This document shows, piece by piece, positions 1,496-12,667 of a stretch of DNA of 14,025 nt. How positions within the stretch are numbered: the stretch's first letter is position 1; each line of letters opens with the position of its first letter. The stretch is taken from IMG/VR virus record IMGVR_UViG_2600255005_000005, one strand, 5' to 3'. Source of the DNA: a virus (lineage: Duplodnaviria > Heunggongvirae > Uroviricota > Caudoviricetes). The notes under the pieces are model-generated. The model was not told the DNA's origin. It did not search any database and was given only the letters and a program-made list of their open reading frames with translations. A program made the position numbers and the translations under genes.

Positions 1496-2902
1496 TCATT
1501 CACGGTTTGCATCATTGATTTCCATCAGCATTACACTCTGATTTTTTAATTCATCGATCACTTCCTCTGGACGGGAATCCTGATCGATAAATTTCAACGC
1601 CTGCAACACCCGAACCGCATCAATCTGACGTATATCACCGCCCTGACGCAATGACTGAACAGCCAGCGCGGAGGATGAGTCAAACACCTGGGCAGATACA
1701 TCCAGTTCAGTGCGCACATCCACATTGCCACCGCAACTCTCTCCGCTCCATTCCGCCATTATCTGGAGAATATTATCGAGGGCATCTTCGAGGGAGTTCG
1801 CCATTGTATAAAGCGGCGAGTGTTCCTGCATCCGCTCTTCATTAGTCTGATCAACAGATTTGGTGGATGTATTTTCAGCCCGCAGAAGTTTAGCGCCGGC
1901 ATGACGCATCTGATTTTCCAGCTTCTCAAGTGATGTTTCGCCAGATTCTATCGCTGCGCCACTATGTTCAACATATTCGAGGCCATTTTTTGTTCTGTCC
2001 TCAAAAATCGTAGCGGTGGATGCACCAACCGTCAGTTCTTCATTCCTGTCCAGCCCGTAGGCCACCAGCAATGGAACGCGGGCAACATGAAGAATATTGT
2101 CCTGCTCGCTCTGGCTTTGCCAGTGCTTGATATTCAGCAAGCCAAGATTAAGCAATGGCGGTGTACCACGCATAAACCCTGTTTTCTTCGTATACAGTGT
2201 TACCAGAGGAATATCATCACGGCTGGTATTCCATGACTCATGAAGCATCCAGACAGATTCGCCATTAGTACCTTCGCTGCGTCGATAAATTTCTACTCGA
2301 CGGGGCATAATATGGCGGATCTGCTCCACCTTCTTCTGCCCGAAATCATCACCATCAATAATGATGACCTCTTTTATACGCAAATCAGTGAGAACAACTT
2401 TCCCTTTTTCAACTTTCGATTTCCATCCAATAACCTGGCGTGGATTCAGCATCGTAACGTACGGGCGACCACCGGCCGCGTTTTCATCGGCTTTTGTCCG
2501 AATCTCGTTCATATCCGTTCGTGGATAGTCCACCAGCGCATGTGCCACACCATACTGAAATGCGAGACTGAAAAATTGCTGCGCCCACACATCCAGTCGG
2601 CTCCCCTCCATGTCGATATTTTCTGCATATTCCCTGATTTTTTCCGGCGTTTCCTCACTCAATACTGTCGGCTCTGCAAATATTCGCCCAATATTTTGTT
2701 TGATGCTTTCTTCATACACAGGAAGTAGCGTAGCCACAGACAGGCGTTTTTTATAAGCGTCTTCATCTTCATTAGGCCATTTGGGGAGATAATTTTCCCC
2801 CTGCCTGCGCATTTCAAGCGTACCGCCCATCAGTGCGTCGTTAATATCCCACGCCTCCAGCATATCGTTATAGTCGAGGTTGGGTGTTGATATATCAGCC
2901 AT
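1496..2902 (-). CDS. putative phage portal protein (called by position immediately downstream of terL)
   Basis: 468-aa acidic protein. ATG at 2902 lies 2 nt after the terL stop (2905-2907). Gene order terS-terL-third gene is the canonical place for portal. No diagnostic motif recognised. Confidence 0.45.
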   Translation of the reverse strand: MADISTPNLDYNDMLEAWDINDALMGGTLEMRRQGENYLPKWPNEDEDAYKKRLSVATLLPVYEESIKQNIGRIFAEPTVLSEETPEKIREYAENIDMEGSRLDVWAQQFFSLAFQYGVAHALVDYPRTDMNEIRTKADENAAGGRPYVTMLNPRQVIGWKSKVEKGKVVLTDLRIKEVIIIDGDDFGQKKVEQIRHIMPRRVEIYRRSEGTNGESVWMLHESWNTSRDDIPLVTLYTKKTGFMRGTPPLLNLGLLNIKHWQSQSEQDNILHVARVPLLVAYGLDRNEELTVGASTATIFEDRTKNGLEYVEHSGAAIESGETSLEKLENQMRHAGAKLLRAENTSTKSVDQTNEERMQEHSPLYTMANSLEDALDNILQIMAEWSGESCGGNVDVRTELDVSAQVFDSSSALAVQSLRQGGDIRQIDAVRVLQALKFIDQDSRPEEVIDELKNQSVMLMEINDANRE

Positions 2903-7325: not shown

Positions 7326-8783
7326 TTAGGAGCGCCAAAAAAAACCTGAAAACAATATAATAACAGGATAAATTTCAAGGCGACCAAGAATCATAGCTAT
7401 GCACATTAAATATTTTGCAATGTCATTAAGCACTCCGAATGACGATGCAGTAGCCCCAAAACCTAATCCCATATTATTAATACATGCAGCCACTGTTGCA
7501 AATGATGTAAGAAAATCATATCCCATACCATTTAACACCAGTATAAAAAACACCGTGAAGAGAGTATAAAGAAAAAAGAAACTCCATACAGACCTCATTA
7601 CACGATCTGTAACTATCTTCCCTCCTACATTTACACTCAACAACGCTCTGGGATGAGAAAGCTGATTTATCTCGTGTTTGCTTTGTTTGAAAAGTATAAG
7701 AAATCGAAGTGACTTAATTCCACCACAAGTTGAACCTATACATCCCCCAAAGAAACTTGACAACAGCAAAAACACTATCGTGTGCGTGGGCCAGCTTGCA
7801 TAATCCTGCGTAGCTAAACCATTATCAGTGAGCATGGAGCTGGCAAGAAAAAACGAATGAATAAAACTTCCATGCAAGTCATACATACCTATATGCCAGA
7901 CCTGGAAAGAGGTAACAATGATCACCCCTAAGGCTATTAACAGAAAGAAACGAAGTTCAATATCTCTGATTAAAGGTTTTATCGTTTTCCTGCTAATAAC
8001 AATATACCAAAGAGTGAAGTTGAAAGCCGATAGCAGGGAAAAAGAACCAGCCACCAGCTCAACCAAATAGTTATTAAAATATCCGATACTCTCGCTATGA
8101 GTTGAGAAACCACCAAGCGAAACTGTGGAAATCCCGTGACAAATAGCATCAAACAAAGGCATTCCTGCAAGTCTATAACAGACAATACAAGCAATACCTA
8201 ATAAAGAATAAGTTATCCACAGTGTCCGTGACGTATCGGCCAGGCGGGGAGTGAGTTTGTCATCCTTAAATGGCCCCGGCATTTCTGACTGATAAAGCTT
8301 TGCACCACCAATACCCAATAATGGCAATACAGCAACCGCCAGAACAATAACTCCTAAACCACCTATAAAATTTAACTGTGACCGATAGTACAAATATGCC
8401 CGAGGTAATGAACTAACATCATCAATTACAGTTGCTCCTGTTGTTGTTATTCCAGAAACCCCTTCAAACAGAGCATCAATGAACGTTAAATTAAGTTCTG
8501 AGTCAATCCATAAAGGGAATGCACTAATAACAGAAAACAAAATCCAAAACATTACAATTATAATAAACCCATCACGGGTACGTAATTGAATGCCAGATTT
8601 CTTAGTTGTATACCACGCTCCGCCACCAATGCAAAAAAATATAACGAAAGTTATAAAGAAAACGAATAGGCTTTTTTCTTTATAAAACAATGCTACAACC
8701 ATTGGTGGCAACATTGAAAGACTATAGAGCCAAACCAGGAACCCACACATATGAGTAACAACTCTTACATGAGATGTATTCAT
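7326..8783 (-). CDS. trkG: TrkG-type potassium uptake protein (Trk/Ktr/HKT family membrane transporter), prophage moron
   Basis: Multi-pass membrane protein whose sequence matches what I recall of E. coli Rac-prophage TrkG (MNTSHVRVVTHMCGFLVWLYSLSMLPP...), with repeated pore-loop glycine motifs. Strongly AT-rich relative to its flanks. First ATG at 8783; an in-frame TTG at 8801 has AAGGTGG 6 nt upstream and is an alternative start. Confidence 0.9.
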   Translation of the reverse strand: MNTSHVRVVTHMCGFLVWLYSLSMLPPMVVALFYKEKSLFVFFITFVIFFCIGGGAWYTTKKSGIQLRTRDGFIIIVMFWILFSVISAFPLWIDSELNLTFIDALFEGVSGITTTGATVIDDVSSLPRAYLYYRSQLNFIGGLGVIVLAVAVLPLLGIGGAKLYQSEMPGPFKDDKLTPRLADTSRTLWITYSLLGIACIVCYRLAGMPLFDAICHGISTVSLGGFSTHSESIGYFNNYLVELVAGSFSLLSAFNFTLWYIVISRKTIKPLIRDIELRFFLLIALGVIIVTSFQVWHIGMYDLHGSFIHSFFLASSMLTDNGLATQDYASWPTHTIVFLLLSSFFGGCIGSTCGGIKSLRFLILFKQSKHEINQLSHPRALLSVNVGGKIVTDRVMRSVWSFFFLYTLFTVFFILVLNGMGYDFLTSFATVAACINNMGLGFGATASSFGVLNDIAKYLMCIAMILGRLEIYPVIILFSGFFWRS

Positions 8784-8920
8784 ATCTAAATATTCTTTCA
8801 ATTATAACCACCTTGCTGCAATATTATGATTATACTGTATAAAATTTAACTCCTCTTAGATCTTACTTCACTGTTCCTTATGAAACAATCATCAAAATGA
8901 ATCATATTGTAGTTAAGATT

Positions 8921-10299: not shown

Positions 10300-10609
10300 T
10301 TCTTCCCGGCAGTTTTCCTTTGTAGGTTATCCACACACCCTGCGCCTCTAAAATTATGGGGCGCTTTTCCGGTGACTGCTCATCCCCTTCACATAACCCT
10401 GCAGCAACATCCAGGAAGACCTGTCTGATGCTCCTTCTGGCTGCTGCCTCATAAAACTCCAGCGCGGCACCTTCAACACGGTCCAGCGAGATGTCCAGGT
10501 CTAAAATTTCACCGTCAAAGCGTTTTTTGTCCCGTAACGCTAAAGTTACCGTAACTTTATTCTCAAAATTGCGGATCCCTTTCACAATCAGTTCATAGTT
10601 TTGAGTCAT
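10265..10609 (-). CDS. hypothetical lysis-cassette protein (114 aa), in the position of Qin ydfR between holin and lysozyme
   Basis: ATG at 10609 lies 4 nt after the holin stop, with GGGGAGAG upstream, so it is translationally coupled to the holin. Soluble, charged protein. Confidence 0.6.
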   Translation of the reverse strand: MTQNYELIVKGIRNFENKVTVTLALRDKKRFDGEILDLDISLDRVEGAALEFYEAAARRSIRQVFLDVAAGLCEGDEQSPEKRPIILEAQGVWITYKGKLPGRITGSLKTPPKW

Positions 10610-10613
10610 TGAA

Positions 10614-10829
10614 TTACTCTCCCCGTGCAGCCTTACGCTTATCTTCTTTAATCTTGAAATAAAGATTTGTCAGATACGTCAACAGGCCAAACACCAGACT
10701 ACCCAGCACACCTATTGCTGCCCACTGTGAGGGCGTGACTCTATCGAGCAACTGTAAAAACCAGTAGCCAGCACTGCCTGCGGAGGTGCCATAGGCGACA
10801 CCTGTTGTTAACTTATCCATGGATTTCAT
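10614..10829 (-). CDS. class II holin (phage 21 S / EssQ-EssD type pinholin) with dual-start motif
   Basis: [71 protein letters not shown] closely matches S21 as I recall it: two TM segments, a Met1-Lys-Ser-Met4 dual start and a charged C-terminus. The upstream in-frame extension to 10922 is rejected. Confidence 0.85.
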
Positions 10830-11168
10830 AACCCCCACCTCGCAGATGCGGGCGCTGTGTAATGGAAACAAAAAATGGCCACCAGCGGCCCGTAAAAAAC
10901 ACCCCGTCAAAAGCACCGGCATCCGCAGATGCCCTTTGCGTGGCGTTATTTGATGCGCGCCAGGTGTGGCGCAAAGAAATGAAATAAGACTTATCGAAAA
11001 TTAAGGTTAATTTGATGATTTAAACCACTTCTGAAGCTTAGTAGTATGAACATGTCCCCAGAAGGGGCCAATACTTATTATTCTTCATGGACTTTGTCCC
11101 GCGGTCTTAATCCGACGACCGCGCTACTTTTCACCCTCTCGCAAATTGCTATCTAAAGGACGTTGTCC

Positions 11169-11201
11169 CACGAGTATTCCTGTATGCTCGTGTCTTTTTT
11201 T
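11169..11201 (+). terminator. candidate plus-strand intrinsic terminator
   Basis: CACGAG...CTCGTG stem with a long 12-nt loop, followed by TCTTTTTTTTG. Confidence 0.3.
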
Positions 11202-11212
11202 GTCCTGAGAAA

Positions 11213-11243
11213 GGAATAAAAAAAACCGCCAGATATGGCGGTT
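11213..11243 (-). terminator. strong minus-strand intrinsic terminator
   Basis: On the minus strand AACCGCCA-UAUC-UGGCGGUU (8-bp stem, 4-nt loop) followed by UUUUUUUUAUU. Confidence 0.55.
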
Positions 11244-11605
11244 GGTCAATGCAAGGGATGAATTTTTTAATTGTTATTAAACCGAGGCGTCGGGTGCCTC
11301 CCGAAGTATTCCGTGCTGCATGGATACTGTGGTTTCCCGCTAAACCGACTCTTTAAACCACCCTCGCACTGAGGAGCGCCTCTGTGGTGCTTTTACAACA
11401 CCAAAATGATGCATCACCGACCCTGCCAGGAAATACAAAATCTCCACCGATAATGCACCATTCTGCTGCCGTAAAAAATTAGCACTGAGGCTACACCCGG
11501 CCTCAAATCATAGCCAGAGAACAGAATGCTTTTTCAAAACAACCTGCTCCCACGTAATAAAAAAATACGCCAGTGCCGTAATACAATAAGGCTTGTTTTA
11601 AATGC

Positions 11606-11680
<75 letters not shown>

Positions 11681-11683
11681 ATA

Positions 11684-11759
<76 letters not shown>

Positions 11760-11777
11760 ATTGGTTCTTCAGGGGAG

Positions 11778-11803
11778 CGATATCACCGAGCGATATCACC
11801 GAG
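11778..11803. repeat. perfect tandem direct repeat, 2 x 13 bp (CGATATCACCGAG)
   Basis: Read directly; lies 18 nt upstream (transcript sense) of the tRNA-Thr 5' end. Confidence 0.6.
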
Positions 11804-12004
11804 CAAAGAAGAGTTCCCCCTCAGAACCGTTTTCGATGATACGATTTAATATTCCAATCGCAACAACACTTTGCGTCAAGCTATGTAAATTTATTTATGT
11901 ATTTTTATTTTATGTGAACATTTCACCTTCACTTAAAATATACGCGACAATATATAAACAAATTTATTTTGAAGGCAATATTAAATGTCGTTTCTTATAT
12001 CACA

Positions 12005-12040
12005 CCATAATAACAACAAAACCCGCTTGATGGCGGGTTC
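12005..12040 (-). terminator. candidate tR'-like intrinsic terminator downstream of the Q-like gene
   Basis: On the minus strand AACCCGC-CAUCAA-GCGGGUU followed by UUGUUGUUAUUAU, about 85-120 nt downstream of the Q-like stop. Confidence 0.45.
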
Positions 12041-12091
12041 TATTAAAGTTTAATTGCGCTTGATTCGCCTCGCGATACAGCTTTGCGAAGC

Positions 12092-12128
12092 GTAGCAAAA
12101 TTGAAGCAGTTTACGCGTAAAAAATCAA
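12092..12128 (-). promoter_or_regulatory. candidate late promoter (PR'-like) at the 3' end of the Q-like gene
   Basis: On the minus strand TTGATT, a 17-nt spacer, then TTCAAT. Weak hexamers; the call leans on the position between Q and the terminator. Confidence 0.2.
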
Positions 12129-12667
12129 GCCGTTTTTTGAGCGAATGATTCTCGCATGGGAATGTATAGCGCATACTCAGCAACGGCCAACCAATTAGCA
12201 ATTCGCTTTTCGCATGTGCTAAAACACCACTCTGGGTGTGCATCATTTAGCAATTCAGCCATTTTGCGTTTGGTCATCCCCCGCCCCTCATACCGTTGCC
12301 GAAGGACGCTAATCAATCCTGGATGCTCTGCCAGCACCTCACTTATGACCCGATCAATACATAACGCCTCTGCATCAGTACAATGCGCCAGCCAGCTCTT
12401 TTGCTTGCCGTTGATCATCTCTCTCAAAAACGCTTCCAGCTCAGCTTTCTCTATTCCCGCTTTTTTCATTCTGCGCAGGGCTTCATTGATGGCTGTTTTC
12501 GTCAATTTTTTGGATGCCAACAACTGATTGAACATATTTCCTGACCTGCCACCGCCAATATACGACCAGCGCCCCCACATACGCAGTTTGCCCTGAATCC
12601 AGACACTTTCCAGCGTGGCGAGACGAAGGTGTTCTCCGCTTTTTCCTGTATTCGTTGGGTAAATCAC
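12125..12667 (-). CDS. putative late antiterminator Q-like protein
   Basis: Last gene of the nin-like cluster, immediately upstream of the terminator/tRNA/lysis region. GTG start at 12667 overlaps the upstream TGA (GTGA) and has AAGGAGGG 7 nt upstream. Contains an N-terminal W-G-x-W motif and Cys residues. The longest ORF to 12787 would overlap the upstream gene by 124 nt. Confidence 0.5.
   Translation of the reverse strand: MIYPTNTGKSGEHLRLATLESVWIQGKLRMWGRWSYIGGGRSGNMFNQLLASKKLTKTAINEALRRMKKAGIEKAELEAFLREMINGKQKSWLAHCTDAEALCIDRVISEVLAEHPGLISVLRQRYEGRGMTKRKMAELLNDAHPEWCFSTCEKRIANWLAVAEYALYIPMRESFAQKTA

Follow-up and report, generated by a model that had tools for sequence, protein, structure and literature searches.

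What does a lambdoid prophage of Escherichia keep between its transfer RNA (tRNA) genes and its holin gene, in a slot that holds no sizeable open reading frame (ORF)? The question is raised by IMGVR_UViG_2600255005_000005, a Caudoviricetes record of IMG/VR whose 14,025 nucleotides (nt) are referred to here as the window. The window is a Rac-like lambdoid prophage of Escherichia, and its gap of 776 base pairs (bp; 11605-10830) is found downstream of a Q-like gene and upstream of the holin gene, the moron-site position of lambdoid prophages. The gap is probably a packed non-coding RNA locus in this moron slot, in which a pair of small RNA (sRNA) genes converges, one of them on the minus strand with the late genes and the other opposite to them.

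A preliminary description of the same DNA had placed an ORF-free region at 10923-11605. The ORF listing agrees that this region has no ORF of at least 60 amino acids (aa) on either strand, and its edge at 10923 has to be moved to 10830. The 102-aa holin ORF ending at 10922 was rejected as an over-extension, since essD measures 216 bp in RefSeq and the Pfam domain Phage_holin_2_1 spans residues 5-67 of the 71-aa product, which puts the holin start at 10829. The non-coding gap is therefore larger than described. The pair of convergent terminators about 10 bp apart, on which that description was centered, was recovered in full by a consensus terminator scan:

11243-11224, minus strand: stem of the strong terminator (8 pairs, 5 of them G-C), followed by T8
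11169-11192, plus strand: stem of terminator T2 (9 pairs), followed by TCTTTTTTT

The T-tracts end at about 11211-11213 on the minus strand and at 11201 on the plus strand, with the 3' ends facing each other across a gap of about 10 bp. Two opposite-strand units, ending in the terminators 11243-11211 (minus) and 11169-11201 (plus), can thus be delineated, and both would be transcribed toward this point. A T-run is missing from the other side of each hairpin, which makes them two one-way terminators and not a single bidirectional one. As the late strand is the minus strand, the terminator previously called minus-strand is the phage-sense one. Across the 1.8-kb region, six terminator-like sites were counted, compared with 2.0 +/- 1.5 in shuffles. 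The preliminary description had missed the long hairpin, the first of the two terminators on the plus strand, and the extra terminators before the holin, all described below.

The plus strand most likely holds a self-contained sRNA gene, which would be expressed in this prophage. For the comparative analysis, IMG/VR was scanned with two conserved words, which returned more than 160 loci and 30-67 unique variants per element. The gene can be divided into the following parts:

10985-11047, plus strand: promoter region, with a conserved upstream block at 10985-11026
11019-11024 and 11042-11047, plus strand: -35 TTTAAA and -10 TAGTAT (TAATAT in relatives) with a 17-bp spacer, from an alignment of 67 variants
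11053-11139, plus strand: sRNA core of about 80-90 nt, matched by the covariance model R1 with 99.3 bits
11055-11069, plus strand: 5' hairpin, alternating between CCCC/GGGG and CUCC/GGAG across variants
11070-11088, plus strand: conserved single-stranded U-rich stretch AAUACUUAUUAUUCUUCAU, a candidate seed, from the alignment
11090-11100, plus strand: GGACUUUGUCC hairpin, invariant in the alignment
11101-11124, plus strand: G+C-rich hairpin with the invariant loop UUAAUCCGAC, which together with the U-run that follows forms terminator T1 (about 11132), from the alignment
11140-11201, plus strand: 3' extension of the type a variant, with a small hairpin at 11160-11170 and then T2, from the consensus scan

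Essentially all of the 67 unique variants preserve both hexamers of the promoter, the -35 element TTTAAA being invariant, and the RNA may start at about 11054. Termination at T1 would give an RNA of about 80 nt, and use of T2 a long form of about 148 nt. The 29 pairs of the five helices are 97.5% paired over 25 variants, seven of them with compensatory double changes, compared with 33-50% in slid controls, and RNAalifold independently recovers the same helices. Types a and b differ in the sequence of the 3' extension, and double changes at pairs 112-122, 114-120, 127-142, and 128-141 preserve both of its hairpins. Among the alignment cells of this RNA, G·U occurs 37 times and A·C three times, an excess that favors the plus strand as the transcribed one; the fold z-score of the region is -4.55 on the plus strand versus -2.40 on the minus strand. 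Across the relatives, the 5' half of the RNA is retained, and three different 3' ends have been swapped in.

The E. coli chromosome itself offers a comparison for this gene. The covariance model R1, built from the 88-nt core of the plus-strand RNA, finds full-length matches beside serU (tRNA-Ser), in the yodB-serU spacer of K-12 (52.1 bits) and in the zinT-serU spacer of E2348/69 (53.9 bits), each with an E-value of about 1e-9:

NC_000913.3, about 2,043,093-2,043,187 (L186 2094-2188), plus strand: K-12 paralog of about 89 nt, found with R1
L183 1458-1553: E2348/69 paralog in the zinT-serU spacer, found with R1

In the K-12 paralog, the upstream block and the -35 element are 83% identical to the window, the -10 element reads TATGAT at the same 17-bp spacing, and the 3' module is 87% identical; the 5' hairpin and the single-stranded stretch differ. 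The upstream block, the -35 element, and the 3' module are collinear in the two sequences. The layout of the family, which the window displays throughout, consists of the -35 TTTAAA, 17 bp, and the -10; a 5' hairpin; a variable single-stranded stretch; the GGACUUUGUCC hairpin; and a G+C hairpin with the loop UUAAUCYGAC, followed by a U-run. The paralog occurs in 5418 of 5426 E. coli genomes. The curated K-12 record does not annotate it, and Rfam has no match for it; the published literature gave no match to an sRNA at yodB/serU or to the RNA sequence, and the RIL-seq tables of enteropathogenic E. coli have none for the serU spacer among the matches listed.

In the Term-seq data of Adams et al. 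2021 (PMC7815308, supplementary file 1), an "orphan" 3' end is reported at 2043181 on the plus strand, within the exact sequence of the paralog. It was seen in two of three conditions, namely LB medium at an optical density (OD) of 2.0 and the third condition, and not in LB at OD 0.4 (PMC7815308). The position coincides with the last U of the predicted terminator of the paralog, which is homologous to T1. It follows that the homologous terminator is used in vivo and that the K-12 member of the family is transcribed, which is indirect but real support for the plus-strand gene of the window.

Further R1 matches include a variant with another 5' region (L137), and the viral contigs L063 and L121 each have a second, diverged copy at a distance of about 1 kb. 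In these two loci, the sRNA copies lie on the same strand (L063 947-1034 and 1956-2049; L121 3451-3538 and 4460-4553; all minus). Their 5' parts differ, and the terminator stem covaries, GCGACC/GGUCGC in one and CGCGGC/GCCGCG in the other.

The partner on the phage-sense strand is a putative RNA that resembles a described family:

about 11409-11211, minus strand: body of the putative sense RNA, STnc100/PasD-like (Rfam, RNAalifold, terminator scan)
parts of this body, minus strand: closing stem GAGGCG/CGCCUC, three internal hairpins, the CGGGAGGCACCCG hairpin, and an A/U-rich stretch (RNAalifold)
11243-11224 and 11223-11211, minus strand: stem and U-tract of its terminator, found in the scan and kept in 8 of 8 aligned relatives

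The Rfam model STnc100 (RF02076) aligns in full with 11409-11214 on the minus strand (22.0 bits, E = 0.016). RNAalifold, applied to 49 variants, gives a multibranch fold with the closing stem and internal hairpins, in which two pairs clearly covary, one between CG and UA (26:21) and the other between GC and AU (30:11). As in STnc100, a CCGGGAGGCACCCGG hairpin stands just before the closing stem is completed, and the motif CGGGAGGCACCCG is identical to the model consensus. The comparison extends to PasD, which is related to STnc100 (Zhu, Shabalina and Storz 2026, bioRxiv 10.64898/2026.05.13.724894). With STnc100, PasD1, and PasD2 (EcOnc13), the window RNA would share the phage-sense orientation, the position upstream of the holin, an intrinsic terminator, and a multibranched fold with a closing stem, and with STnc100 also the exact CGGGAGGCACCCG hairpin. 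It differs in following tRNA-Gly and the long hairpin instead of a DUF3927 gene and in its score, 22 bits compared with a gathering score of 47. The sense RNA is accordingly filed as STnc100/PasD-like, and not as a member by the Rfam threshold.

A relative from the bovine strain OkiPb01701 (L013) carries a true STnc100 (93.7 bits) at the equivalent sense position, after a DUF3927 gene. In this locus, tRNA-Gly is directly followed by the long hairpin, a short body, and the terminator also seen in the window (2658-2760). After this hairpin unit come the TerB and DUF3927 genes, the true STnc100, an oppositely oriented iraM, and the holin. This arrangement implies that the slot accepts several different cargo sets between fixed RNA modules.

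Upstream of the body of the sense RNA, and overlapping the start of its STnc100 match, lies the most conserved module of the gap:

11477-11390, minus strand: long imperfect RNA hairpin (about 34 bp, many of them G·U), with the conserved apical stem-loop GGAGAUUUUGUAUUUCC and a 3' internal loop (folding, covariation)
11473-11506, minus strand: terminator-like hairpin (stem 11506-11485) and T-run in the spacer between tRNA-Gly and the long hairpin (consensus scan)

The minus strand of the long hairpin folds with -41.5 kcal/mol (z = -6.88) and the plus strand with -12.6 kcal/mol (z = -0.42), and this strand specificity arises because the stem is rich in G·U pairs. All 56 unique variants adopt the same fold, with -35 to -49 kcal/mol, and the other strand is always weaker. 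Over 27 diverse sequences, the 34 pairs are 95.9% paired (35-54% in slid controls), eight pairs having changed on both sides and many more alternating between G·U and A·U or G·C. The strand-specific fold and the covariation identify the hairpin as an RNA element of the phage-sense transcript. It was found in 396 of 5426 E. coli genomes, whole in every case, and 139 of the 143 loci have a tRNA-Gly on the same strand, 100-139 nt upstream of it, even though the spacers between them come in unrelated sequence types.

This linkage suggests a processing or stability signal in the trailer of tRNA-Gly, for which an RNase III site would be the simplest reading. RNase III requires some 20 bp at least of double-stranded stem on the transcribed strand, and the hairpin offers a stem of 34 pairs in 27 variants that is specific to the phage-sense strand. 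At 11409, within the 3' arm of the hairpin, the STnc100 model begins, a weak hint at most for cleavage by RNase III. The terminator at 11506-11485 is probably dispensable, as it is not conserved in the other spacer type (L013/L182-type loci). An attenuator, in which this terminator would compete with the hairpin, was considered and rejected, as the other spacer type lacks the terminator.

These elements can be combined into a mechanism. Sense transcription would arrive from upstream, either from a promoter before the tRNAs (about 11877-11836) or by read-through from the late promoter past the Q gene. The resulting transcript would comprise tRNA-Thr, tRNA-Gly, a trailer with the 34-bp hairpin, and the STnc100/PasD-like RNA, and would stop at 11243-11211; the hairpin, most simply as an RNase III site, would release or protect a downstream RNA of about 200 nt. 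On the opposite strand, the sRNA gene would use its own sigma-70-type promoter (11019-11047), with a start at about 11054 and an end at about 11132, at the weak T1, or at 11201. Its product may be a base-pairing regulator made in lysogens, acting in trans on host or phage messenger RNAs (mRNAs) through its variable 5' part. Being fully complementary to the leader of the late mRNA, it may also damp leaky read-through to the holin. Upon induction, Q-modified polymerase would read through the sense terminators at 11243, 10933, and 10890 to the holin.

Two more far-reaching readings can be attached to these elements: the plus-strand RNA may belong to an undescribed family shared by the E. coli core genome and its prophages, or the 34-bp hairpin may be a new cis-acting RNA signal. 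Even taken jointly they are doubtful, and they are put forward tentatively. If the first were true, the phage copies would keep the core promoter and a protein-binding 3' module and carry new 5' seeds, so that in lysogens the same signals would drive a "reprogrammed" host regulator; or else the phage copy would compete with the host RNA for its chaperone. If the second were true, the hairpin would link the processing of the phage's tRNA operon with release of the downstream regulatory RNA or with moron expression.

The convergent sRNA pair has to be weighed against simpler accounts, the first of which starts from the holin-proximal end of the gap:

10877-10972, minus strand: pre-holin module, with a covarying hairpin at 10972-10957 (consensus scan for terminator-like hairpins)
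10933-10918 and 10890-10877, minus strand: terminator-like hairpins, each followed by a T-run (scan)

This module lies just upstream of the ribosome-binding site of the holin, and it is conserved, with its pair of terminator-like hairpins, before two unrelated holin types. Altogether, four terminator-like hairpins stand on the sense strand between the tRNAs and the holin, and a Q-type antiterminator gene is present upstream. The gap could then be a mere stack of transcription stops, in which the sense terminators silence the lysis genes until Q takes effect, the plus-strand terminator blocks antisense transcription, and the RNAs are by-products. Such an arrangement is unlikely to be the whole content of the gap. 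It leaves unexplained the conserved promoter on the opposite strand, the covariation in helices outside the terminators (5' hairpin, helix 4, and the long 34-bp hairpin), and the conserved single-stranded stretch. Moreover, the K-12 paralog, whose promoter and 3' module are the same, has been kept in the chromosome and yields an RNA 3' end there, at a place without any phage late operon.

Protein-coding accounts meet with a different difficulty, namely that no small ORF of the gap is convincingly conserved as coding. The candidate that came closest overlaps the plus-strand sRNA gene:

10991-11089, minus strand: phage-sense ORF of 32 aa in most relatives, frameshifted to 16 aa in the window (11089-11042); probably not a gene

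Of 121 loci, 92 have this ORF intact, and its ratio of nonsynonymous to synonymous polymorphism (pN/pS) is the lowest of the six frames, 0.39 versus 0.49-0.92 in the other five. The single-stranded stretch of the plus-strand RNA is exactly antisense to its start region. A small-protein module resembling type I toxin-antitoxin systems could be built from these facts, with the ORF as the gene and the plus-strand RNA as a cis-antisense repressor lying over its start codon. The overlap is real, but such a module is quite improbable. Besides its frameshift in the window, the ORF is broken in 29 of the 121 loci (24%) by several independent events. Its variable sites number 16, 10, and 15 by codon position, the third not being the most variable, and 33 nucleotide variants encode 29 different peptides. 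The peptide is weakly hydrophobic, with a hydrophobic run of seven residues that is too short for a membrane toxin. In addition, no promoter for the ORF is visible, and the K-12 paralog has no ATG at the corresponding start. The pN/pS value lies only a little under the range of the other frames; the six-frame control was judged unconvincing, and the 32-aa ORF was rejected as a gene. A decayed moron, that is, the remains of a protein gene broken by frameshifts, is barely credible: RefSeq/GenBank annotate ORFs of 96, 105, and 132 aa here in L007, phage vB_EcoS-683R6, and L005, but their frames and strands differ with no conserved frame shared, those on the sense strand of L005 and L007 run through the terminator hairpin and its U-tract (e.g., ...PPYLAVFFIL...), and what the DNA conserves is RNA helices with G·U pairs rather than codons.

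Two shorter plus-strand ORFs were also set aside. The 36-aa ORF at 11046-11156, noted in the preliminary description, exists as described; it lacks conservation, with an ATG that falls within the -10 element and upstream of the predicted RNA start and that is missing in relatives such as those of type b. A 41-aa ORF, a "hypothetical protein" of PGAP at 10862-10987 of the window, is broken by indels of 1-4 nt in relatives. Genes annotated as hypothetical proteins within the gap are found in L005 (1618-2016), L007 (1619-1909 and 2030-2155), L002 (3189-3506), and the window (10862-10987, plus strand). These annotations in the slot are probably spurious artefacts and can be flagged as such.

The earlier expectation that one or more sRNAs are likelier here than a protein is supported by structures that covary and by the lack of a small ORF convincingly conserved as coding. 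The check that had been named beforehand, covariation and structure analysis of related prophages, yielded conserved, covarying helices on both strands. Likewise, the idea of short transcripts ending from both directions in the moron slot is backed by comparative evidence in the form of the conserved promoter, the covarying helices, and the strand-specific hairpin.

Several observations nevertheless weigh against the convergent sRNA pair. The plus-strand promoter matches 8 of 12 consensus positions and, with a threshold of 9 of 12, was not listed by the consensus scan. T1 carries four U's in the window (U6-U7 in relatives of types b and c). Independent substitutions are few, since many covarying cells trace to a small number of events that separate types a and b. 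The evidence for expression concerns the K-12 paralog alone and not this prophage, and the near-universal presence of that paralog at 95-99% identity is close to ordinary core divergence, so that presence alone does not prove function. As for the putative sense RNA, its Rfam score of 22 bits lies below the gathering score of 47, and no convincing sigma-70 promoter was found directly upstream of the long hairpin when both spacer types were read. Finally, the 32-aa ORF overlaps the plus-strand promoter and 5' hairpin and is intact in 76% of loci, which means that their conservation could be partly coding.

Convergent pairs of this kind have a precedent. Tree et al. 2014 (PMC4104026) described convergent sRNA genes at the moron site 3' of PR' in many prophages of the O157 strain Sakai, including the anti-sRNAs AsxR and AgvB, with conserved 3' and variable 5' parts. 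The window shares with these pairs the position between the Q antiterminator (or PR') and the lysis genes, the two facing short genes, each with an intrinsic terminator, and the family logic of a conserved 3' part joined to a variable 5' part. It differs from them in the predicted length of its plus-strand RNA, about 80-150 nt compared with 51-60 nt, and in its carrier, a Rac-like element of commensal and extra-intestinal strains that is not a Shiga toxin (Stx) phage. The covariance models of AsxR (RF02703) and AgvB (RF02702), which cover a 3' region of about 42 nt, found nothing in 10830-11610 (E <= 5) or in 10500-12300 (E <= 1). At permissive thresholds (E <= 5), Rfam gave no match in the gap to Esr41, sok, or IpeX-like RNAs; weak matches were obtained with STnc100, STnc240, and microRNA precursors, the last being an effect of the long-hairpin shape.

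The Pas RNAs provide a second comparison. PasA and PasC are oriented antisense to the late genes and PasD in the sense direction, around the holin region, and the genes of PasA, PasC, and PasD1 typically adjoin the holin/lysozyme operon (Pearl Mizrahi et al. 2021, PMC8550237; Zhu, Shabalina and Storz 2026, bioRxiv 10.64898/2026.05.13.724894). The plus-strand RNA would resemble PasA and PasC in its orientation opposite to the late genes and in its terminal intrinsic terminator, and the distance from its 5' end to the holin start (about 225 nt) would be similar to that in PasA (214 nt). It differs from both in lacking any detectable sequence similarity, so that the match is positional alone. For this comparison, the PasA, PasB, PasC, and PasD loci and the DLP12 region loci of E2348/69 and K-12 were taken at their published coordinates. 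Sensitive blastn (word size 7) showed no similarity between the window region and these Pas and DLP12 loci, and R1 had no match at the loci of PasA, PasC, and PasD (L010-L012). On sequence comparison, then, the plus-strand partner does not appear linkable to any named family.

A third class consists of short leader RNAs made between PR' and tR', of which the 6S RNA of phage lambda is one. StxS of Stx phages (PMC7547250) is another. The likely equivalent in the window is located at 12127-12014, upstream of the tRNAs, and the RNAs of the gap would be separate units downstream of it.

The convergent-pair architecture as such is already known (PMC4104026), and it is found here in a different prophage lineage. 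Rewiring of host regulation by prophage sRNAs is known from pathogenic E. coli, with AgvB, AsxR, and the Pas RNAs as examples. The present locus would extend the architecture to Rac-like prophages and to about 7% of sequenced E. coli, laboratory and commensal strains included. As the K-12 sibling is unannotated and has a mapped RNA 3' end, the family is easily testable in the best-studied bacterium. The long hairpin linked to a tRNA and the core-genome paralog are two leads for further work.

The window is 100% identical to several E. coli chromosomes and to an E. ruysiae representative. The gap is present, at 81-100% identity, in 373 of 5426 complete E. coli genomes, among which E. coli W, 042, and ATCC 8739 carry the locus, and in just 2 of 50,697 phage records. 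It is a mosaic whose sub-modules are also found singly in other prophage contexts. A scan of genome contigs with the hairpin pattern, which addressed host range, had Escherichia ruysiae as its sole match, identical to the window.

On the minus strand, the late genes upstream of the gap encode DUF1367 and DUF1364 proteins and a DUF1133 (Q-like) protein, followed by the two tRNAs; 3' of the gap come a P21-type holin, YdfR, a lysozyme, Rz, and trkG. The Q-like protein, whose gene ends at 12125, matches DUF1133, and the Q21-type antiterminator family (Phage_antitermQ) scores just above the cut-off. The tRNA genes were identified by ARAGORN and by the Rfam tRNA model (73.8 and 65.6 bits for the pair):

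11759-11684, minus strand: tRNA-Thr(UGU)
11680-11606, minus strand: tRNA-Gly(UCC)

The potassium-transporter gene trkG occupies 7326-8801 of the window (minus strand), directly after Rz, and is also seen in L001 from 5817 onward. Since trkG is a Rac-type cargo gene, the prophage can be regarded as a fuller relative of the Rac remnant of K-12.

A candidate late promoter follows the Q-like gene on the minus strand, with a -35 TTGATT (12127-12122), a 17-bp spacer, and a -10 TTCAAT (12104-12099); a different Q allele retains the -35 in the form TTGCAA. The first late terminator has its stem at 12045-12014, followed by a T-run (minus strand), and the predicted leader is about 85 nt long. Promoter (12127-12099) and terminator (12045-12014) together put both the gap and the tRNAs past the first late terminator. 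Stx phages have the same arrangement. In this stretch (12127-12005, minus strand), Rfam gives a weak match to STnc370 (30 bits; gathering score 54).

Closer to the tRNAs, two sets of promoter-like hexamers lie at 11836-11877 (minus strand), about 75-115 nt upstream of tRNA-Thr: TTGACG-17 bp-TGGAAT and TTGCGA-16 bp-TATCAT. They are identical in all four aligned relatives and possibly represent the promoter of the tRNA operon, which would also feed the long hairpin and the sense RNA. Just upstream of tRNA-Thr (11775-11800, minus strand), the 13-bp unit GCTCGGTGATATC is tandemly duplicated, and it is present as a single copy in three aligned relatives.

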